Positions 1,499-41,110 of a stretch of 64,000 nucleotides of DNA are shown piece by piece. The position numbers and the translations under genes are program-made. How positions within the stretch are numbered: the stretch's first letter is position 1; each line of letters starts with the position of its first letter. The stretch covers positions 2,472 through 66,471 of the forward strand of contig JAICWH010000002.1 of the NCBI GenBank assembly GCA_025934895.1, read 5' to 3'. Under the pieces are notes generated by a model. The model was not told the DNA's origin and did not search any database. It saw only the letters and a program-made list of their open reading frames with translations. Source of the stretch: Nocardioidaceae bacterium. GTDB lineage: Bacteria > Actinomycetota > Actinomycetes > Propionibacteriales > Nocardioidaceae.

Positions 1499-3918
<2,420 letters not shown>

Positions 3919-3935
3919 CCCGCCTTGAGAGCCCG

Positions 3936-3963
3936 ATCGCCGATAATCTACATTATGTCAACT
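3936..3963. other. dif: dif-type XerC/XerD site-specific recombination site
   Basis: ATCGCCGATAA-TCTACA-TTATGTCAACT: 11-6-11 layout; right arm matches the E. coli XerD arm TTATGTTAAAT at 9/11; AT-rich island in very GC-rich DNA. Confidence 0.88.
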
Positions 3964-5837
3964 ACGGGCGGCCGGCAGCGGATGTTCCGGTAGACGTGCA
4001 CGCCGCGGCGCGCGGCGTCCGGGGCCACCGGCAGCTCCAGCAGGAAGCCCCGGTGCAGCTCGGACGCCGCCACGACGTAGCAGTCGGTGGCCGCCGGGAA
4101 CAGGTACATCCACTGCTGTCCGCGGTAGCCGTGGGAGCTGGAGTGGTGCCGGTCCAACCGCGCTGTGGCATGCATCCCGTTCCAGTCCAGCCCGGCGTTG
4201 ATGGCAGTAGCCGGTACACCTGCGTGCGTGAGCCGACGCGCGGCCTCCCACACCGCGTGGTCGCGACGGTCCGTGAGCAAGGTGTTCGTCACCGACAGCG
4301 TCAGCAGGATCGCGGCCAGGGCCGCGGCCACGGCGCCGTACACCAGGTGCGCGGGGCGCAGAGACAGTCCTCCTCCGCCCGCGGCCGAGCTCGCGTCCGG
4401 GGCACGGGCAGCCCTGACCGGGGTCAGCAGCAGCACGGCGAGGCCGGGAAGCATCGGGACGTGGTACCGGTCGACCTGGAACTGTCCTGCCAGGCACAGC
4501 ACCAGACCGAAGCAGGCCAGGAGCCCGGTGTAGGCAGCGAGCATCGTCACCGCCGGGTCCGCGGCCCGGGCCTTGGCGACCGCGGTCCTCGGCGTCCGCG
4601 GCGCACGCGCGCCGATCTCCCCGAGGAGCACGATGCCGGCGACGGCGCCCAGCACCTGGGCGATGTCCCACAGCCAGGGCTCGACCGACGACGGCGCATA
4701 TCCGACGGTGGCGACCCGGAACCCGCCCATGGCGGTGGTGTAGTTCGACAGCAGGACCCGTGGCAGGTGCGGCAGGTGGCCGCCGGCGAGCGCAGCCACC
4801 CCGCACACGCCGAGCACCCAGCCGCAGACCCGGCCTCGACCGGGCCTCCTGCGCCAGCCGTGCATCCGGGGAGGTGCCCCGCGAGCCGACCCGTCCGACG
4901 ACCGGCGCGACCACGCGCGCCACAGCGACCAACCGGACAGTGGCGAGAGGACCAGGCCCAGGGTGTACGGCACGCGCAGACCGCTGCGCCAGGTGCCGGC
5001 CGCGTGCAGACGGAGGCCGAACGGCGGGATGTCGGGGTGCCCGAGCTGGTGCCGCAGCTGCTCCAGGACCACGCAGGCGACCGCAGCGGCCACGGTGGCG
5101 GTCACCGCGAACCGCCGGAACCGCCGCCACCGCGGACCGGTCCCTCCGTGCACCAGGGCCCCGACGAGCACGGCGCCGAGACCGGCGACCGCCTGCTCGC
5201 GGATCGTGAAAGCGACGATCCCGGCCGCGACGGCCAGCAGGAACCGCGGTCTGCTCTGCTCGTCCACGGCCCGCGCAGCGACCAGCACCGTGAGCAGCGA
5301 CATCGCTGCCGCGGGCAGGTCGGTCATGAACGAGCTGGCCAGCAGCGGAAGCCCGGGCCACAGGGCCAGCACGACCGGCACGGCGACGGCACGGGCCGGA
5401 CCGACACACCGTCGGGCGACGGCGAACGCGCACCACATCCACAGTGCGGCGGCCGTGACGCCGTACAGCTTGAGGCTCGCCACGTGGTCCCCGAAGACGG
5501 TCAGGAACGGCTGCGCAGTGGCCAGCTGTCCGACCAGGAACATCTGTCCCCAGCCCTGCAACCGGAGGTGACCGGTGCGGTGCAGGTCGAACGCGGACCG
5601 CATGAAGGACCAGTCGTCGTTCTGTGGCAGCAGGGCTCCGGTGGCCACGCTGGCCACGAACGACGCGGCGGCCACGACGAGGATCACCAGCAGCGTCGCA
5701 CACTCAGGTAGCCGCCCCCGACGGTGAAGCCGCGCCGGTCCCGGGCGCGAGCCCGGCGCGTGGCTCGGAGCGGCCACGGCGATGTCTGCGTGCGCCCTCA
5801 GCGCGCGGGCCGGGTCACCGGCGCTCGTCCGAGGCAC
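3948..5837 (-). CDS. GT-C fold membrane glycosyltransferase (ArnT/PMT-like); start uncertain
   Basis: N-terminal TM followed by PQNDDWSF (acidic pair in first loop) and many TM segments; stop TAG lies inside the dif site. Confidence 0.65.
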   Translation of the reverse strand: MPRTSAGDPARALRAHADIAVAAPSHAPGSRPGPARLHRRGRLPECATLLVILVVAAASFVASVATGALLPQNDDWSFMRSAFDLHRTGHLRLQGWGQMFLVGQLATAQPFLTVFGDHVASLKLYGVTAAALWMWCAFAVARRCVGPARAVAVPVVLALWPGLPLLASSFMTDLPAAAMSLLTVLVAARAVDEQSRPRFLLAVAAGIVAFTIREQAVAGLGAVLVGALVHGGTGPRWRRFRRFAVTATVAAAVACVVLEQLRHQLGHPDIPPFGLRLHAAGTWRSGLRVPYTLGLVLSPLSGWSLWRAWSRRSSDGSARGAPPRMHGWRRRPGRGRVCGWVLGVCGVAALAGGHLPHLPRVLLSNYTTAMGGFRVATVGYAPSSVEPWLWDIAQVLGAVAGIVLLGEIGARAPRTPRTAVAKARAADPAVTMLAAYTGLLACFGLVLCLAGQFQVDRYHVPMLPGLAVLLLTPVRAARAPDASSAAGGGGLSLRPAHLVYGAVAAALAAILLTLSVTNTLLTDRRDHAVWEAARRLTHAGVPATAINAGLDWNGMHATARLDRHHSSSHGYRGQQWMYLFPAATDCYVVAASELHRGFLLELPVAPDAARRGVHVYRNIRCRPPVVDIM

Positions 5838-31539: not shown

Positions 31540-32091
31540 CTACCGGCCCACTCCGGCGTGGCTGGCGAAGTAGACCAGCCGGTACTTCCCGATCTGCACC
31601 TCGTCGCCGCCCTGCAGGGTCACCTCGTCGATCCGGTCGCGGTTGACGTAGGTGCCGTTGAGACTGCCGACGTCGGCGACCGTGAAGCCGTCCGCCGTGC
31701 GCCTGAACTCGGCGTGCCGACGAGACACCGTGACGTCGTCGAGGAAGATCTCGCTGTCCGGGTGGCGGCCGGCAGAGACCACGTCGGTGTCCAACAGGAA
31801 CCGGCTGCCGGCGCTGGGGCCACGCTGCACGACGAGCAGGGCGCTGCCGGCCGGCAGGGCGTCGACGGCCGTCGCGTCCGCCTCGTTGAGCGACCCCTCG
31901 TCGCGGAGCTCGGATGCGTCCTTGGCAGGCGCCCCGAACGTGATGGTCGCCGTGGTCTCGCCGTGGCCCTCGACGGCTGCGGGTGTCGTCGGCCCGTCGC
32001 TGCCGGCGGCCGCCACGAGGCGGTTTCCGCACTGCGAGCAGAAACGAGCCCCGTCGGGGTTCTGGTGTCCGCACTGGGTGCAGAACGGCAT
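31540..32091 (-). CDS. garA: GarA/OdhI-like FHA protein with N-terminal zinc ribbon
   Basis: CTQC..CSQC, ETTATITFG, AGRHPDSEIFLDDVTVSRRHAEF..GSLNGTYVN..QIGKYRL. Confidence 0.92.
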   Translation of the reverse strand: MPFCTQCGHQNPDGARFCSQCGNRLVAAAGSDGPTTPAAVEGHGETTATITFGAPAKDASELRDEGSLNEADATAVDALPAGSALLVVQRGPSAGSRFLLDTDVVSAGRHPDSEIFLDDVTVSRRHAEFRRTADGFTVADVGSLNGTYVNRDRIDEVTLQGGDEVQIGKYRLVYFASHAGVGR

Positions 32092-33858: not shown

Positions 33859-34760
33859 CGGCGGCCCTGGAGCTCGTGGGCATGACGAAGGCTCACGCGC
33901 CTGGCCGCGGGCAGCTGCATGGAGTCCTTCACCTCGATGTTGAACTGCAAGCCGAAGTTGGATTGTAGGGTCACCCACACCCGCCCTCCTTCGGTGTCGA
34001 GCAGCCGGGCACCCATGTCCTGCGGGTTGCCGATCGCCGAGACGGTGTAGGGCGCGGTGAGGGACCGGAAGTCGACGGTCACCGCCCCGGCGGCGTCGCG
34101 GATCGGGGTCAGGCTGGTCAACCGCTGCCCGTTGATGGAGATGGCCTCGGCGCCGACCGTCCACAGGGCGTTGACGAGCTTCTGCAGGTCCTGGGACTGC
34201 ACCCGCTTCTCGGGCGTGGTGGCGCCTGGTGCGTCGTCGACCGTCACCGCTATGCCGGGACCCCGGGTGGGTTCGCTTCCGGTCAGGATCCCGAGGCGGG
34301 TGAGCTGCTGCCGCATGGCGCGGCCCTGCGCGGTCGCGTCCAGGCTGCGGGCCTGCAGGGTCGTGATCTGGTCCTGCAGCACGCGCACCAAGGTGCGGCG
34401 CCTGTTCAGGTCGTCCCTGCGGGCGTCGACCTGCTTGACCAGCGTCTCGCGCGAGGTCGCCGCCTGGGGTGCGTCGCGGGAGTTCTGGACGGCGGCCGTC
34501 GCCACCAGCACCCCGAAGAAGGCGAGCACGAGCAGGGTCCTGCTGGCCGGCCGGGCCCCTAACGGCCTGCCGGGGGGCCTGCCGGTGGGCCCGCCGGGGT
34601 CTGGCGGCGTCCCGGCGGCCGCGTCCCGCATCCTCGCGGCGCGGGCGTAGTCGGCGTCCAGCGAGGTCGAGGCGATGTAGTCGAGCAGCCCCAAGCGCAC
34701 GCCGGCCGGTGGGTCGGGGACCGGCTGGTGCGGGTCGGTTCCGCGTGGGTCAGCCACCAT
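33855..34760 (-). CDS. DUF881 family protein (Rv1823-like)
   Basis: LDADY, TM, GPGIAVTVDDA, DLQKLVNALWTVGAEAISINGQRL..PYTVSAIG. Confidence 0.85.
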   Translation of the reverse strand: MVADPRGTDPHQPVPDPPAGVRLGLLDYIASTSLDADYARAARMRDAAAGTPPDPGGPTGRPPGRPLGARPASRTLLVLAFFGVLVATAAVQNSRDAPQAATSRETLVKQVDARRDDLNRRRTLVRVLQDQITTLQARSLDATAQGRAMRQQLTRLGILTGSEPTRGPGIAVTVDDAPGATTPEKRVQSQDLQKLVNALWTVGAEAISINGQRLTSLTPIRDAAGAVTVDFRSLTAPYTVSAIGNPQDMGARLLDTEGGRVWVTLQSNFGLQFNIEVKDSMQLPAARRVSLRHAHELQGRR

Positions 34761-35364
34761 CGAGAGCAGGCGCCCTTCGGTCGCGGTCGGCGAGCAGCTT
34801 GTGGACCTGCCACGCATAGAGGAGGCCGGCCCACCAGTACAGCCCGATCCCCCAGATGGCGAACGCCCAGCCGAGGATCTGGGCCAGGTGCGCCAGCGTG
34901 CCGGTCGCGTCCCCGAGCAGCAGCAGCGGGAAGGCGTACAGGAGGTTCGCGGTGGCGGCCTTGCCCAGGAAGTGCACCGGCAGCGAGCTGTAGCCGCGGG
35001 TGCGCAGGAACGGCACGAGGCACCACAGGAACGCGTCTCGCGCGGGGAGGAGGGCGGCCACCCACCACGGGATGATGCCGCGCGCGGCGAGCCCGATCAC
35101 CGTGGACAGGATGTAGAGCCGGTCGGCGACCGGGTCAAGGATCTCCCCGACCTTGGACGTCTGGTTGAGCCTGCGCGCCAGGTAGCCGTCGGCATAGTCG
35201 CTGATCCCGGAGACGAAGAGTACGGCGAGGGCCCAGCCGTCCGCCTCGGGGACCAGGACGAGCCAGAGGAAGAGGGGGACACCTGCGAGCCGGATGATCG
35301 AGATGACGTTGGGGATGGTGAGGACCCGGTGGCTGCCGCCCACCGCTCCGTCCTGCTTGTCCAC
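34750..35364 (-). CDS. pgsA2: CDP-alcohol phosphatidyltransferase (PgsA2-like)
   Basis: LTIPNVISIIRL, SDYADGYLARRLNQTSKVGEILDPVAD, GKAAT. Confidence 0.92.
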   Translation of the reverse strand: MDKQDGAVGGSHRVLTIPNVISIIRLAGVPLFLWLVLVPEADGWALAVLFVSGISDYADGYLARRLNQTSKVGEILDPVADRLYILSTVIGLAARGIIPWWVAALLPARDAFLWCLVPFLRTRGYSSLPVHFLGKAATANLLYAFPLLLLGDATGTLAHLAQILGWAFAIWGIGLYWWAGLLYAWQVHKLLADRDRRAPALDGG

Positions 35365-35513
35365 CAGGTATCCCTCGCCTCGTTGGGAACCTCAGCACCC
35401 TATCCCGTCGGGGAGCGGGCTCCGGCAGTCCGGGAACGAGGGTGGCTGAAGCGGCGTGGCGGAGAGTGCTGGGGTCGACGTGGCATCTTCCCAGCGGGGA
35501 TCGTGCGCCTGTC

Positions 35514-35672
35514 TCAGTGCGCGGAGATGCAGCGGCCGCAGCGGGGGCAGTGCGCCCGTGCGACGACGTCGAGCTGCTGACCGCAGCGGCAGTCTCGGAG
35601 GCGGCGGCGCACGATGCCCTGCTTCTTCGTGACCCGACTGTCGCCGTTCGTGGTGTTCTCGGTGCGGCTCAT
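35514..35672 (-). CDS. 52-aa Cys/His-rich micro-protein (absent from ORF track), paralogue of 38556-38714
   Basis: Hand translation MSRTENTTNGDSRVTKKQGIVRRRLRDCRCGQQLDVVARAHCPRCGRCISAH*; GGGGAG upstream; GC-rich third positions. Confidence 0.75.
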   Translation of the reverse strand: MSRTENTTNGDSRVTKKQGIVRRRLRDCRCGQQLDVVARAHCPRCGRCISAH

Positions 35673-35796
35673 GAGCTCAGCTCCCCATAGATCCTGTCAT
35701 GAACAGGAAACTGGCGAGCACGTCGAAAGTGACGCAGAAACGCCGGTCATGGCCCGAAAGGATCAGAGGGACCACCCGAAGGGACGAGCCGCTCGC

Positions 35797-36018
35797 TCAG
35801 AGCTTGTGCAGCTTCGCGAACGGCCGCATCAACCGCGTGCGCGAAGTTCCGAAGTCCACCACGACCGCCTGCTCACCCTCGACAGCGACCACGCGGCCGA
35901 GACCGTACTTGTCGTGCGTCACCCGCTCGTCGACCAGGAAGGTCTCCACCACCTCCGGCACAGGAGGCTTGAAGGGACTGCTGGCTAGGTGTCGCCGGGA
36001 CCCGGCATATGGCTTCAT
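35797..36018 (-). CDS. Stand-alone PcrA/UvrD C-terminal Tudor-like domain protein (73 aa)
   Basis: FLVDERVTHDKYGLGRVVAVEGEQAVVVDFG..LHKL*; ATG at 36018 with CATACT 7 nt upstream. Confidence 0.75.
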   Translation of the reverse strand: MKPYAGSRRHLASSPFKPPVPEVVETFLVDERVTHDKYGLGRVVAVEGEQAVVVDFGTSRTRLMRPFAKLHKL

Positions 36019-36199
36019 TGGCTCCAGTATGTGCCAGGGGGGCTGTCCCTGTCGCCCTTCGGCGCCCACGATCGGGTCCGTACGGGGAGGAAGCCTGGCC
36101 GTGCGGCGTCTCCAGCCCCCCGGACCGGAGACGGCGCACTGCACACCTGAGACGCCGGAGCGGCCGGGTCGTGACGCCGGTTGAGACCGGCTCTTCGGC

Positions 36200-37054
36200 C
36201 TAGGGGTAGAGGTGCCGCACCAGCGGGCCCGGCGCGAACGGTCGCCAGCTCCTCTCCGGACGGGCCAACCGGTCGGCCAACAGGTGCAGGACGGTGGGGT
36301 TGTTCACGAGACCTGAGTGGCTGCCGCGAACCTCGATGTTCTGCCGACGCCGGCCGGGCGGCAGCAGACAGGACTTCCACGGCACCACGCCGTCGCTGCG
36401 CGTGTAGACGGCCGTGGCCGGCACCCGCAACGGCCCGGGCTCCGCCCACGGGCGCGCCACCATCGACGGCGTCACGTGCAGGTGCGACATCGCGTCGAAC
36501 ACCTGGGACGCGGCCCGACCGCTGCGGCGGGCCAGCCGCACCGGACTGCCGAGGGTGACGACCTGCCGGACACTGCCCGGAGACTTGCGGGCGAGCTCGT
36601 GCGCGTAGAGACCCCCCAGGCTCCAGCCCACGAGGCTGACCCGGCTGCCCGAGGAGTCAGCCAGCGTCTCCAGCCGGTCCCGCAGCCCGCTGACGACCGC
36701 CTCGGTCGGCCCGAGGTTCGCACCGAGCCGCCAGCCGGAGACCGAGTAGCCCAGCCAGCCGAGGTAACGGCGCAGGAGCAGGGTGGAGGCGTCTCCTCCC
36801 CACAAGCCGGGCAGCACCAGGACCGGGTGTCCGTCGCCTCGTTGTTCGACGGCGAGCAGGGGCGCGACCGTCACGGTTGCCGCCAGCTCCAGCGAGGCTC
36901 GCGGCAGCTCGGAGGCCAGCAGCCTGGCTGCGGGACCGTGCCGCCCGACCTGCACGGGCCGCGGCAGCGATCTCCATCGGGCTGGAGCCCACGTCCCGAC
37001 GGCCCATGGGGCCGGAGGCCACCCGCGGACCTGGGTCAGGGGCAGCCGGCGCAC
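36200..37054 (-). CDS. Alpha/beta hydrolase (esterase/lipase-like)
   Basis: VLVLPGL, LVGWSLGG (GxSxG), VTLGSP, SDGVV, SHSGL. Confidence 0.88.
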   Translation of the reverse strand: MRRLPLTQVRGWPPAPWAVGTWAPARWRSLPRPVQVGRHGPAARLLASELPRASLELAATVTVAPLLAVEQRGDGHPVLVLPGLWGGDASTLLLRRYLGWLGYSVSGWRLGANLGPTEAVVSGLRDRLETLADSSGSRVSLVGWSLGGLYAHELARKSPGSVRQVVTLGSPVRLARRSGRAASQVFDAMSHLHVTPSMVARPWAEPGPLRVPATAVYTRSDGVVPWKSCLLPPGRRRQNIEVRGSHSGLVNNPTVLHLLADRLARPERSWRPFAPGPLVRHLYP

Positions 37055-37075
37055 CGGGTCATCGTGCCATGGACC

Positions 37076-37420
37076 TCAGGGCTGGTGTGCCGCGCGGTAG
37101 GCCGCGATCACCGTCACCGGCAGGCGACCGCGCCCGCTGACCGTGAAACCGTTCTGGCGCGCCCACGCACGGAGCTCGACGTTGCTCACCTGGGGCGTGG
37201 CCTTGGCGCCGCCGCTCCCCTTCTGGCGCCGCCTGGCCGATCCCTTTCCCGGTGGCGACGTGGCGGGACCCGGTGGGGGTGCGATGCTGGGTACCTCGGA
37301 CAGGTCCGGCTGGGGGACGTGCTTCGTGGACACCCCGAGCTCGACGCCGTACACAGCGCCGACGACACGCAGTGCGTCCTCGAGCGGGTCGCTCGAGTCG
37401 ATGGTCACCTTCACGGGCAT
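37076..37420 (-). CDS. Lsr2-like nucleoid-associated protein with atypical N-terminus
   Basis: C-terminal ELRAWARQNGFTVSGRGRLPVTVIAAY (Lsr2 DNA-binding domain with RGR hook); GAGAGG RBS before ATG 37420. Confidence 0.8.
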   Translation of the reverse strand: MPVKVTIDSSDPLEDALRVVGAVYGVELGVSTKHVPQPDLSEVPSIAPPPGPATSPPGKGSARRRQKGSGGAKATPQVSNVELRAWARQNGFTVSGRGRLPVTVIAAYRAAHQP

Positions 37421-37545
37421 CTGCCTCTCGACGTGTCCGGCGGATGGGAGGGTCCACAGCTGGATGCCTCCCAACGCTACTAGAGACGGCAACCCGGCGC
37501 AGCGAACGCGCCGGTCCGGCGGATCCGCCCCGACGGCACGTGGGC

Positions 37546-37728
37546 TCAGCCCGGGCGTCGCAGCGTCGCCTCGAACTGCTGGAGGGACCGTTTGGTGCTG
37601 GTCTCGAGGTCGCGTACCGCCCGCTGCAGGGCGGACCGGTCGTCATCGTCCTTCTTGTGCCACTGGTCGTGCCGGAAGGGGTCGACGACCCCGGCCCCGC
37701 ACTTGCTGCAGGTCTGCACCTCTGACAT
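37546..37728 (-). CDS. 60-aa protein with C-x2-C-x9-H-x3-H zinc-finger-like motif and helical tail
   Basis: CSKCGAGVVDPFRHDQWH; GGAGG RBS. Confidence 0.7.
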   Translation of the reverse strand: MSEVQTCSKCGAGVVDPFRHDQWHKKDDDDRSALQRAVRDLETSTKRSLQQFEATLRRPG

Positions 37729-37809
37729 CTCGACCTCCCGGGCCGGTCGCCGACGGCTGCCTTCGTCGCCACCGTACGTCGACCGCGGGAACTGCTCGGT
37801 GCGGGATGG

Positions 37810-38325
37810 TCAAGCCTCGGGTGGCCGGGAGGGGGGTCGGCGGGCCTGGTCGAGGTAGCGCTCCATCAGGTCGGGGCTGAGCCCGTCACCGAAGGTCTGG
37901 GCGCGGGACCCGGCCGCGACCGTGCGGCGTCGGGCGGACGCTCGTCGGAAGGCCGCGACGCCGAGGCAGGCGGCCGCCGCGACGAACCAGCCGAGGACGC
38001 CCGCAGCGTCCACCCATCGCGTGGACCTGCTGACCAGGCCCTGCCCCGGGTCGGCCGGGTCGACGTAGACGGTGACCGGCGTGTCGTGGCTGGGCGCCGC
38101 GCCCGGCGCGTCCACAGTGAAGTCCTCCCCGTTGTACTGGTAGTAGACGATCCCACCGCTGTTGGTGCCCTGCACGGCCTGGCCGGTCCAGTACAGGCTG
38201 GACGGCGACTGCAGCTCCACGAGTGCGAACAGCAGCCCCACGACGACGAGGGCGAGGGCGACCTTGGCGGACGGGTACGCGAGGACGCCGCGGAGCCCTC
38301 CTCGCAGGCGCGGCTGCTCGGACAT
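37810..38325 (-). CDS. Two-TM membrane protein, function unknown
   Basis: Two hydrophobic segments flanking a beta-rich loop (VTVYVDPADP); GGAGG RBS. Confidence 0.7.
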   Translation of the reverse strand: MSEQPRLRGGLRGVLAYPSAKVALALVVVGLLFALVELQSPSSLYWTGQAVQGTNSGGIVYYQYNGEDFTVDAPGAAPSHDTPVTVYVDPADPGQGLVSRSTRWVDAAGVLGWFVAAAACLGVAAFRRASARRRTVAAGSRAQTFGDGLSPDLMERYLDQARRPPSRPPEA

Positions 38326-38555
38326 GCGGCACCTCCCGCCGTCGACGCTGGAGTACGACGCTAGCGCCCTGCGACGCCGGACGTAAGGGTCCCTGCCGGC
38401 GTGCCCGGTGCCGCAGCGGTATCACCGGACCGGCGCCGGCCCTCCTCACCGACAGACCCGTACGACGAGGTCGGAAAGAGCGATGAGGTCACGACCGGCG
38501 GCAGGTCCTACCTGTGAGCCGGAAACCGTGAGCGACCCGGGAGGGAGCAAGAGCG

Positions 38556-38714
38556 ATGACCACCGAACAGCACGCCTGGGCCACGGCTCCGGCGACGGGG
38601 AGGACCTCGAGGCCGTCCGGGCCGCCGGTGTGTGGCTGCGGCCAGGACCTCGACGTATGTCACGGGAGCCACTGCCCACGCTGCGGCACGTCGCTGCTCG
38701 CGCACGCGGCGTGA
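38556..38714 (+). CDS. 52-aa Cys/His-rich micro-protein (absent from ORF track), paralogue of 35514-35672
   Basis: Hand translation MTTEQHAWATAPATGRTSRPSGPPVCGCGQDLDVCHGSHCPRCGTSLLAHAA*; GGAGGGAG RBS. Confidence 0.78.
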   Translation: MTTEQHAWATAPATGRTSRPSGPPVCGCGQDLDVCHGSHCPRCGTSLLAHAA

Positions 38715-38774
38715 GCGGCGGCAGTCGGGCACCGAAGCGCCCGAGCACCGAAGCGCCCGGGCGCCGACGTGCGG

Positions 38775-39989
38775 TCAGGCGACCATGCCGTGCGGGTCGA
38801 TCACGAACTTCTTGGCGGCGCCGCTGTCGAAGTCGGCGTAGCCCTGCGGGGCCTCGTCGAGTGTGATGACGGTCGCGTTGACGGCCTTGGCGATCTGCAC
38901 CTTGTCGTGCAGGATCGCCTGCATCAGGCCGTGGTTGTACCTCATCACCGGGCACTGACCGGTGGTGAAGGACAGCGACTTGGCCCATCCGGTCCCGAGG
39001 CTCAGCGACAGCGACCCGACCTTGGCGGCCTCGTCGATGCCGCCGGGGTCTCCGGTCACGTAGAGCCCGGGAATGCCGATGGCGCCGCCGGCGGCGGTGA
39101 CCTCCATCAGCGAGTTCAGGACGGTGGCAGGCGCCTCGGTGGACGCGCCCTCGCCGTGACCCCTGGCCTCGAAGCCGACCGCGTCGACCGCGGCGTCGAC
39201 CTCGGGGACGCCGAGCAGCTGCTCGATCTGGTCCTGCGGGTCTCCCTTGGAAACGTCGACCACCTCGCACCCGAAGCTCTTGGCCTGCGCGAGCCGGTCC
39301 TCGACCATGTCGGCGACGATCACCACGGCGGCGCCGAGCAGCTGGGCGCCTGCGGCCGCCGCCAGCCCGACCGGTCCCGCACCCGCGATGTAGACGGTGG
39401 ACCCCGGCTGCACGCCGGCGGTCACCGCTCCGTGGAACCCGGTCGGGAAGATGTCGGACAGCATCGTGAGGTCGGTGATCTTCTCCATCGCCTGGTCCCG
39501 GTCCGGGAACTTGAGGAGGTTCCAGTCGGCGTAGGGCACCATCACGTACTCCGCCTGGCCACCCACCCAGCCGCCCATGTCCACGTAGCCGTAGGCGGCC
39601 CCCGGGCGTGCCGGGTTGACGTTGAGGCAGATGCCGGTCTTGCGCTCCTTGCAGTTGCGGCACCGCCCGCACGCGATGTTGAAGGGCACCGAGCAGAGGT
39701 CGCCGACCTTGATGAACTCCACGTCCGGGCCTGCCTCGACGACCTCGCCGAGGATCTCGTGACCCAGGACCAGGTTGTGCGGCGCGGTGGTACGGCCCCG
39801 CACCATGTGCTGGTCGCTTCCGCAGATGTTGGTCGTCACCACCTTGAGGATCACGCCGTGGTTGCACTTGCGACCGACGTTGGCCGGGTTGACGCCGGGC
39901 CCGTCCCGGAGCTCCAGCTTGGGGTAGTCGATCTCGTGGACCTCGACCTTGCCGGGGCCCATGTATGCAACGCCTCTGTTGCCTGCCAT
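38775..39989 (-). CDS. fdhA: Glutathione-independent formaldehyde dehydrogenase (zinc MDR family)
   Basis: TNICGSDQHMVRGRT, LGHEILG, CGRCRNC, GGWVGGQAEY, LSDIFPTG, GIPGLYVTGDPG, GQCPV. Confidence 0.93.
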   Translation of the reverse strand: MAGNRGVAYMGPGKVEVHEIDYPKLELRDGPGVNPANVGRKCNHGVILKVVTTNICGSDQHMVRGRTTAPHNLVLGHEILGEVVEAGPDVEFIKVGDLCSVPFNIACGRCRNCKERKTGICLNVNPARPGAAYGYVDMGGWVGGQAEYVMVPYADWNLLKFPDRDQAMEKITDLTMLSDIFPTGFHGAVTAGVQPGSTVYIAGAGPVGLAAAAGAQLLGAAVVIVADMVEDRLAQAKSFGCEVVDVSKGDPQDQIEQLLGVPEVDAAVDAVGFEARGHGEGASTEAPATVLNSLMEVTAAGGAIGIPGLYVTGDPGGIDEAAKVGSLSLSLGTGWAKSLSFTTGQCPVMRYNHGLMQAILHDKVQIAKAVNATVITLDEAPQGYADFDSGAAKKFVIDPHGMVA

Positions 39990-40909: not shown

Positions 40910-41110
40910 TCAGCGTTCACGAGCCGCGGATCGCGACGCCTGGGCGGCGGCGCGGGGTCGAGCCAAGGACGCGACCGGCAGCAGGAACCAGTGGCGTCGT
41001 ACGCACCGCACCTTGGCATGCTCGACTGGCCCGTCGGTGCTCTCCAGCACGTCGCGCCACTCCACCTCAGCAGGTGCCCCGCACTCCGGGCAGGTCGTGG
41101 TGTCCCACAT
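40910..41110 (-). CDS. 66-aa zinc-ribbon-like protein
   Basis: CPECGAPAEV..STDGPVEHAKVRCVRRHWF; AGAAGGGG upstream. Confidence 0.72.
   Translation of the reverse strand: MWDTTTCPECGAPAEVEWRDVLESTDGPVEHAKVRCVRRHWFLLPVASLARPRAAAQASRSAARER

Follow-up and report, generated by a model that had tools for sequence, protein, structure and literature searches.

Two very short open reading frames (ORFs), each coding for 52 amino acids and rich in Cys and His, lie near one another in the genome of a Nocardioidaceae bacterium and raise the question of whether they are genes at all and, if so, what their products could do. They are part of a stretch of 64,000 nt (assembly GCA_025934895.1, contig JAICWH010000002.1, positions 2,472 to 66,471), which we call the window and to which all coordinates refer unless another contig is named. 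The two ORFs, which we call P0001 and P0002, and their Shine-Dalgarno (SD)-like sites are the following:

35514 to 35672, minus strand: P0001, A-type micro-protein gene; 52 residues, basic, with the core C28-R-C30-GQQLDVVARA-H41-C42-PR-C45-G
35681 to 35686, minus strand: SD-like GGGGAG, 8 nt 5' of the P0001 ATG
38539 to 38547, plus strand: SD-like GGGAGGGAG, 8 nt 5' of the P0002 ATG
38556 to 38714, plus strand: P0002, B-type micro-protein gene; 52 residues, with an MTTEQHAW N-terminus, the core C26-G-C28-GQDLDVC-HGS-H39-C40-PR-C43-G and a C-terminal -HAA

Our answer, to which we give a probability of about 0.55, is that both are micro-proteins built around a Cys4 metal knuckle, with P0001 representing a subfamily (A) linked to pgsA and P0002 representing a dispersed subfamily (B) that would be induced by an ECF56 sigma factor and cleared by ClpXP.

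Translation gives MSRTENTTNGDSRVTKKQGIVRRRLRDCRCGQQLDVVARAHCPRCGRCISAH as the product of P0001 and MTTEQHAWATAPATGRTSRPSGPPVCGCGQDLDVCHGSHCPRCGTSLLAHAA as the product of P0002, confirming both ORFs and the ribosome-binding site that a preliminary description of this DNA had proposed for each of them. No further copies were found by a six-frame motif scan of the whole 3.9-Mb assembly (70.9% GC). The paralogy suggested earlier also stands, as BLASTP aligns the C-terminal 25 residues of the two proteins, and these alone, with 15 of 25 positions identical (60%, E=5e-10). Their N-termini are indeed unrelated when the two copies are compared, but within each subfamily the N-terminus is conserved. 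That the two ORFs were unannotated is true in part: public protein collections already include the exact sequence of P0001, and RefSeq and JGI list orthologues of both types as "hypothetical protein" (e.g., WP_180935157.1 of Nocardioides ungokensis, WP_344148343.1 of N. koreensis, and WP_183408353.1 of N. pocheonensis), while no record of the exact P0002 sequence was found in these collections, where a word-index search returned 44 homologues of it.

The case for coding is strong on the level of codons. Among non-redundant orthologues, the entropy at codon positions 1, 2, and 3 is 0.43, 0.27, and 0.83 for the P0001 type and 0.63, 0.49, and 0.96 for the P0002 type, i.e., highest at the third position in both. 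Pairwise Nei-Gojobori comparison of the 24-codon core gives a ratio of nonsynonymous to synonymous substitution rates (dN/dS) of 0.20 for A and 0.32 for B, with frequent synonymous changes in TGC/TGT, GGN, CCN, and CGN codons. Alignments of 64 and 84 sequences share the invariant columns C, C, G, Q, C, P, R, C, and G, and L, D, and H are conserved to at least 90%. Start codons and strong SD sites are likewise conserved; many A-type genes start at GTG after GGGAG, the counterpart of the P0001 site that is kept before GTG or ATG starts in its orthologues, and a GGAAGGCGGTGA block related to the SD site of P0002 is kept in the orthologues of the latter. About 130 six-frame matches are free of stop codons except for 2 with one TGA each. 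Given this third-position variation, the core dN/dS, the invariant residues, and the conserved starts, we conclude that both P0001 and P0002 code for proteins, are subject to purifying selection, and belong to a family restricted to this lineage, as had been proposed from protein-level conservation.

Searching with profiles built from the shared motif, which the preliminary description had put forward as a check, uncovered homologues throughout the lineage. An exhaustive hidden Markov model (HMM) search of 1.84 billion representative proteins yielded 288 clusters (50% identity) at E<=1e-3, nearly all of 40 to 80 residues. With a profile of five sequences, the family was detected in 34 of 36 genomes of the same genus; the two genomes without a match are 58% to 60% complete and lack pgsA, too. 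One 98%-complete genome of the genus gave no match to the family. In the window's own GTDB family, which is the Nocardioidaceae judging from record titles, carriers with 1 to 4 copies each account for 84 of 201 genomes, spread over 12 of 45 genera, and the profile search found no carrier among 24 genomes that represent four further families of the order. A pattern scan with one genome per species gave 66 loci, all from Nocardioidaceae or Propionibacteriales records, including the cultivated species Nocardioides iriomotensis, N. koreensis, N. ungokensis, and N. pocheonensis. The family is thus confined to part of the Nocardioidaceae.

It falls into two subfamilies. A-type proteins have the core CxCGQQLDxCARAHCPRCGR behind a basic N-terminus that is rich in Thr, Ser, and Arg (e.g., VTRTETKT...RARCSRS), with a median pI of 9.9 and an N-terminal net charge of +3. 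B-type proteins have the core CGCGQ[DE]LDxC and a neutral pI, and an M[TN]TE[QRK]HAW start is recognizable in one third of them. A fifth Cys (LDxC) is found in 86% of A and 66% of B proteins; since this residue varies and is Val in P0001, the remaining four Cys would constitute the constant ligand set.

The only part conserved across the whole family is a module of 18 residues, C-x-C-G-Q-[QDE]-L-D-x-(C)-x3-H-C-P-R-C-G. Searches of Pfam, NCBIfam, and PDB sequences with single sequences and profiles returned nothing above threshold, in agreement with the earlier statement that no named family could be assigned. All sub-threshold HMM matches were zinc-ribbon families (such as NrdR, LysW, DUF2089, DZR_2, and S27ae), the best Pfam match of P0001 being Zn_ribbon_NrdR with 15.5 bits compared to a cutoff of 27.2 bits; P0002 had none, and a weak match to the DUF2089 ribbon was seen in only 5 of 84 members. 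A metal knuckle is plausible because the four invariant Cys are arranged as CxC...CPRCG and because these weak matches are all zinc-ribbon families. The most economical reading would be a single Cys4 metal site (most likely for Zn) formed by the CxC pair and the CPxCG knuckle, which are 11 residues apart, and the invariant GQ-LD segment and the near-invariant His would then form a loop or an interaction surface.

The A-type gene is tied to one genomic place. Wherever the available flank suffices (around 36 loci), it is located 5' of pgsA-DUF881-sbp-DUF881 (where sbp stands for a small basic protein) on the same strand, and pgsA starts approximately 100 to 270 bp beyond its stop codon. The relevant features of the window are:

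34750 to 35364, minus strand: CDP-alcohol phosphatidyltransferase gene of the pgsA/cardiolipin-synthase type (Pfam PF01066, E=6e-37), first gene of the pgsA-DUF881-sbp-DUF881-gcvH-FHA cluster
35397 to 35402 (block to 35410), minus strand: -10-like hexamer TAGGGT/TAAGGT (TAnnnT) between P0001 and pgsA, from an intergenic comparison of about 30 loci
35706 to 35758, minus strand: conserved non-coding block TTCGGGCCAT..GTTTCTGCGTCA..GTTTCC upstream of P0001, a presumed promoter or operator, from an alignment of 30 loci

Behind DUF881, the cluster of the window continues with gcvH, an FHA (GarA-like) gene, MerR, nuclease, and MerR genes, and gcvP; on its other side, P0001 is neighbored by a tudor-like gene. 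We take this pgsA cluster to be conserved across Actinobacteria and to correspond to Rv1822-Rv1832 of M. tuberculosis. In 12 genomes sampled from other families of the order, pgsA is present, but no comparable small Cys-containing ORF was found 5' of it. In four diverged genomes (L057, a Marmoricola metagenome-assembled genome, as well as L058, L079, and L083), the pgsA-linked place is taken by a B-like CGQ[DE] copy, which suggests that this position is probably the ancestral one.

Between the A-type gene and pgsA, about 30 genomes share a strongly conserved block (GGCTAAGGTAC / GGATAGGGTGC) that holds the -10-like hexamer. Based on this element, the pgsA-DUF881-sbp-DUF881 operon probably has a separate promoter, and the A-type gene probably forms a transcription unit of its own. 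The block upstream of the A-type genes, also rendered as TTCGGGCCAT..GTTTCnGCGTCAT..GGTTTCC across the 30 loci, gave 0 predicted consensus pairs with RNAalifold, and we therefore rejected a riboswitch or structured leader RNA at this site. It was also dropped as a regulon motif since it occurs once in the genome. No match was found in an Rfam scan of 34500 to 39500, and none in scans for sigma-70 promoters and intrinsic terminators.

B-type genes are dispersed, and what part of them share is a promoter-like motif, cGATGA[GC]T-N16-GTCnGTAC, located 65 to 74 nt before the ATG. The same motif is found in front of a sigma factor gene elsewhere in the genome:

38481 to 38512, plus strand: ECF56-type promoter-like site CGATGAGGT-N15-GTCCTACC, starting 75 nt before the P0002 ATG (74 nt from the GATGA core)
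Contig C215 (outside the window), 3875 to 4906 and with its site to 4981, minus strand: sigma factor gene of the ECF56/TIGR02960 type, 343 residues (PRK08241, E=1e-140; TIGR02960, E=1e-122)

The consensus CGATGAGTT-N15-GTC of ECF56 sigma factors is reported to be conserved from Streptomyces venezuelae to M. tuberculosis, and their regulon to comprise glyoxalase, dihydrofolate-reductase-like, hydrolase, and hypothetical proteins (bioRxiv 10.1101/2020.01.30.927608). The site of P0002, CGATGAGGT-N15-GTC at 38481 to 38507, differs from this consensus by one mismatch. The best copy of the motif in the genome (29.5 bits), a perfect CGATGAGTC-N15-GTCGGTAC, ends 43 nt before the start codon of the sigma gene, which is followed by a TIGR03086/MDMPI_N (DinB-like, mycothiol-type) gene. 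Among 16 other genomes with the micro-protein family, the motif stands directly 5' of 13 of 15 sigma orthologues (at least 63% identity), and paralogous sigma factors (39% to 52% identity) mostly lack it.

Using a position weight matrix (PWM) trained on the sites of sigma genes alone, the site of P0002 scores 15.7 bits and is the 8th best genome-wide; the higher ranks belong to sites in front of the sigma gene itself and of RibD_C/DHFR-, DUF1905-, BNR-, VOC/glyoxalase-, and MBL-like genes. Scores of at least 14 bits (14 to 29) were obtained for 14 of 37 B-type upstream regions, at the same distance from the start codon, compared to 0.02% of random 180-nt genomic windows, while P0001 and other A-type genes have no such site. 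B-type genes thus carry the published consensus at promoter distance just like the sigma gene and VOC-, DHFR-, and DinB-type genes of this genome, with the difference that a small Cys-rich member is not described in the available part of the published account of the regulon (10.1101/2020.01.30.927608). On these grounds, predicted membership in the ECF56 regulon is well supported for the B subfamily. For P0002 itself, it is only moderately supported since a match with one mismatch would be expected 0.25 times per 64 kb by chance.

The candidate regulon of this genome would include the RibD_C-like (contig C45), DUF1905-like (C36), BNR-like (C18), VOC (C106), and MBL-like (C31) genes. Some B-type genes without an ECF56 site (L072, L073, and L075) share another upstream block, GAGAAAGTTGTTGGGA(A)T, which suggests that a different regulator or sigma factor may control part of the subfamily. 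We had also considered a PafBC/RecA-NDp or SigB/F-type promoter for B-type genes, but spacing and -10 element do not fit these while the ECF56 consensus fits exactly. A likeness of MTTEQHAW to the N-terminus of ECF56 sigma factors was dropped because the orthologues show only generic MTT starts, and the idea that B-type proteins could be the ECF56 anti-sigma factor RsfG was rejected since RsfG is a protein of 17 kDa encoded beside the sigma gene.

A second mark of the B subfamily is its C-terminus. In one set, 86 of 175 B-type proteins end with -AA and 10 more with -VA; in a larger set, -AA is found in 120 of 218 proteins (55%) across 14 classes of tail length with 6 to 33 residues after CPRCG. 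P0002 ends with -HAA. By comparison, this ending is present in 1.5% of the long ORFs of this genome and in none of 19 A-type proteins, and P0001 lacks it as well. That the terminal dipeptide is kept while the tail before it is remodeled speaks for selection acting on the C-terminus as such. In the SsrA-type ClpXP degron, Ala-Ala at the C-terminus is the essential part. For sigma-AntA of Streptomyces, a terminal Ala-Ala found in 67 of 71 orthologues is a proven ClpXP degron that controls protein abundance and is inactivated by an AA-to-DD change that stabilizes the protein, and ClgR and PopR are cited alongside as further cases (PMC7142297). Like these regulators, B-type proteins keep a terminal Ala-Ala-COO- in their orthologues, and by analogy we predict that they are Clp substrates. 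They differ in that they are neither sigma factors nor DNA-binding regulators and in that the residue before Ala-Ala is often H, Q, or R rather than L.

Taken together, the metal knuckle would be flanked by disordered tails that carry the functions specific to each subfamily. The A copy, P0001, would have kept the apparently ancestral place before an envelope and division cluster, with a unique control region of its own upstream. P0002, as the B copy, would be a dispersed duplicate that acquired an ECF56 promoter, the MTTEQHAW N-terminus, and the terminal Ala-Ala. It may be switched on together with the ECF56 detoxification regulon (VOC/glyoxalase-like, DHFR-like, and DinB/MDMPI-type genes), fold around a metal bound by its four thiolates, and act through these thiols or by binding a presumed partner, until Clp proteolysis removes it so quickly that its level would track stress.

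Several observations weigh against this reading. Regarding the metal knuckle, its first half is CxC instead of the usual CxxC, and structure prediction, a check likewise proposed at the outset, brought little: the AlphaFold model of P0001 from the 64-sequence alignment has a weak mean predicted local distance difference test (pLDDT) score of 57.5, that of P0002 from the 84-sequence alignment is also weak at 66.9 (about 75 at residues 21 to 50, with isolated bridge residues only), and the best Foldseek matches in the PDB are unusable RING or ribbon fragments with E=3.4. Since pgsA seems to have its own promoter, the presumed functional link of P0001 to the operon is one of synteny. The ECF56-type site of P0002 combines its mismatch with a poor -10 element (GTCCTACC), chance alone yields such a one-mismatch match within 64 kb in 24% of shuffled sequences, and the motif is lacking at 23 of 37 B-type loci. 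Similarly, 45% of B-type proteins do not end with -AA, and with -HAA or -QAA the degron may be less effective than with -LAA. No conserved neighbor of B-type genes was found in the three contexts with called genes, which are unrelated to each other (called genes were used because spurious GC-rich ORFs dominated the clustering of neighboring ORFs). P0002 is divergent from a gene for a DUF3592 membrane protein and tail-to-tail with a gene like Zn-dependent (formaldehyde/alcohol-) dehydrogenases; in two other genomes, the B-type gene follows a DinB_2/pentapeptide gene and an ABC-2 transporter gene, respectively. With such contexts, no partner can be named, and nothing was found that links either protein to RNA polymerase or the ribosome, for which a partner role had been suggested. 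Finally, the sets used for dN/dS were gathered partly with the motif as a regular expression, a caveat that is offset by the fact that all 20 loci obtained from the profile search alone also fit this expression.

Four other explanations have to be weighed. The most elementary one, that the ORFs arise by chance or that an RNA or DNA element rather than a protein is conserved, could draw on the abundance of 50-codon ORFs on every strand at 71% GC, but it is already contradicted by the codon-level statistics: variation is dominated by third positions with a dN/dS of 0.2 to 0.3, start codons and SD sites are conserved, the roughly 130 six-frame matches are open save for the two with a TGA, and Rfam has no match, so that we give it practically no weight. 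P0001 could instead be a cis-acting leader peptide, i.e., an upstream ORF whose translation (responding, e.g., to the supply of cysteine) controls the pgsA operon while the peptide itself has no function. The short, Cys-rich ORF does sit invariably on the same strand 100 to 270 bp before pgsA, as a leader should, yet purifying selection extends to non-Cys residues with an invariant GQ..LD..CPRCG, paralogues with the same module sit far from pgsA, a conserved -10-like element separates ORF and operon, and the scans showed neither a terminator or attenuator hairpin nor an Rfam element. This makes a mere leader improbable. Even less credible are precursors of a ribosomally synthesized and post-translationally modified peptide (RiPP) with a Cys-rich core. 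Small size and a Cys-rich C-terminal half behind a more variable N-terminal half would suit such peptides, but a conserved "core" with a variable "leader" is the reverse of most RiPPs, and no maturase, protease, or transporter is conserved beside A-type genes or beside B-type genes, the contexts of which are wholly different between genomes.

The fourth alternative deserves more attention, although we consider it unlikely: the proteins may be thiol peptides that buffer metals or electrophiles, similar to metallothioneins or chaperones or as sacrificial scavengers, with B-type proteins soaking up Cu, Zn, or reactive aldehydes. Five Cys and one or two His within 18 to 25 residues and the CxC typical of metallothioneins would be in line with this function, as would the predicted co-regulation with VOC/glyoxalase, DinB/MDMPI (mycothiol-dependent), and reductase types of genes, the tail-to-tail arrangement of P0002 with the dehydrogenase-like gene, and the link of an ECF56 sigma factor of S. 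tsukubaensis to iron and copper homeostasis (PMC7730460). Nevertheless, only four Cys are invariant, so that a single site with hardly any capacity would result; that G, Q, L, D, P, and R are strictly conserved fits a defined fold or interface better, a built-in degron would be odd for a buffer, and the A copy stands outside the stress regulon. Beyond these alternatives, the preferred reading of a Cys4 micro-protein could be extended such that B-type proteins are thiol or metal sensors feeding back on the ECF56 sigma factor or on the RNA polymerase that carries it. The B-type protein would then be induced by the sigma factor, attach to this factor or to its inhibitory SnoaL-like domain depending on redox state or metal, and subsequently be cleared by ClpXP. 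We regard this extension as speculative and its chances as slim.

Comparison with known small Cys proteins helps to place the family. The haloarchaeal C(P)xCG zinc-finger micro-proteins such as Brz also have 50 to 60 residues with little beyond a Cys4 site with CPxCG, and they occur as numerous lineage-specific paralogues. Brz of Halobacterium salinarum is encoded directly 5' of the gene that it regulates and in the same orientation (PMC2253796), a placement like that of P0001 relative to pgsA. These archaeal proteins have no detectable homology to ours, the first knuckle here is CxCG instead of CPxCG or CxxC, and the regulation known for Brz has as its counterpart a family known from sequence alone; with 52 residues, one exact CPRCG, and one CxCG, P0001 and P0002 show a likeness of kind, not of family. 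The zinc-ribbon or rubredoxin-like knuckles of Zn_ribbon_NrdR, LysW, DZR_2, and S27ae share two Cys pairs about 11 residues apart, the second of which is CPxCG, but none of the scores comes near the gathering thresholds, our family has CxC as its first pair, and there is no significant neighbor in the PDB.

The metallothionein MymT, WhiB-like Fe-S proteins, and ZAS anti-sigma factors are small Cys/His-rich proteins of actinobacteria, like P0001 and P0002, and often linked to stress sigma factors. Neither P0001 nor P0002 gave an HMM match to any of these three. Membership among metallothioneins was also rejected because a Cys content of about 10% and a single site are unlike these proteins, and neither protein is long enough to form a WhiB fold or an anti-sigma domain. 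Regarding ZAS proteins in particular, HxxxCxxC is absent (with H-C-P-R-C in its place), the length is 52 compared to around 80 to 90 residues, and no zf-HC2/RsrA HMM matched.

Several further genes of the window came to our attention during this analysis:

31540 to 32091, minus strand: FHA protein gene at the GarA position; the ORF translation reads an N-terminal double CxxC zinc ribbon, MPFCTQCGHQ...FCSQCGNRL
35797 to 36144: small tudor-like ORF; an alpha/beta-hydrolase gene is also found here beside the Lsr2-like gene
37076 to 37492, minus strand: Lsr2-like gene for a nucleoid-associated protein (Lsr2 DNA-binding domain, E=6e-12), between the two micro-protein genes
37546 to 37728, minus strand: 60-residue ORF, MSEVQTCSKCGAG...DQWHKK..., between the Lsr2-like and DUF3592 genes
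40910 to 41101, minus strand: ORF with a CPECG...C knuckle (MWDTTTCPECGAPAEVEWRD...VRCVRRHWF)

Pfam has no match for the 60-residue ORF, which is conserved (62% to 69% identity) in no more than 4 of 31 same-genus genomes and is probably a genuine, though accessory, small gene. The ORF at 40910 to 41101 is kept in 9 of these 31 genomes and codes for another stand-alone micro-protein that resembles a zinc ribbon and is unrelated to the family described here.

What is new at this locus would be a functional split between a basic copy that precedes pgsA and a dispersed one with an ECF56-type promoter and a ClpXP-type tail. The family offers a strongly conserved, compact Cys4 module that is absent from Pfam, NCBIfam, and the PDB. 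Its reach is limited to part of one bacterial family and its biochemistry is that read from sequences, yet small proteins are often missed or left as "hypothetical", and this family provides concrete and testable regulatory handles. With the A-type paralogue, the lineage has an extra gene in front of the pgsA-DUF881-sbp-DUF881-gcvH-garA cluster; apart from this gene, the cluster is conserved throughout Actinobacteria, where it is connected with division and the synthesis of membrane lipids. The main interest lies in the B-type paralogue, which may be a new element of the response governed by ECF56, itself poorly understood. Sigma factors of this type (ECF56/SigG) are common among Actinobacteria, mycobacteria and streptomycetes included, and their promoter is highly conserved, so that a Cys-rich and probably short-lived member of the regulon is a natural candidate for a component responsive to redox state, metals, or electrophiles. 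If B-type proteins did act as sensors, they would supply the missing input signal for this family of sigma factors, and their A-type relative would be constitutive and act on the envelope and division cluster downstream of its gene.

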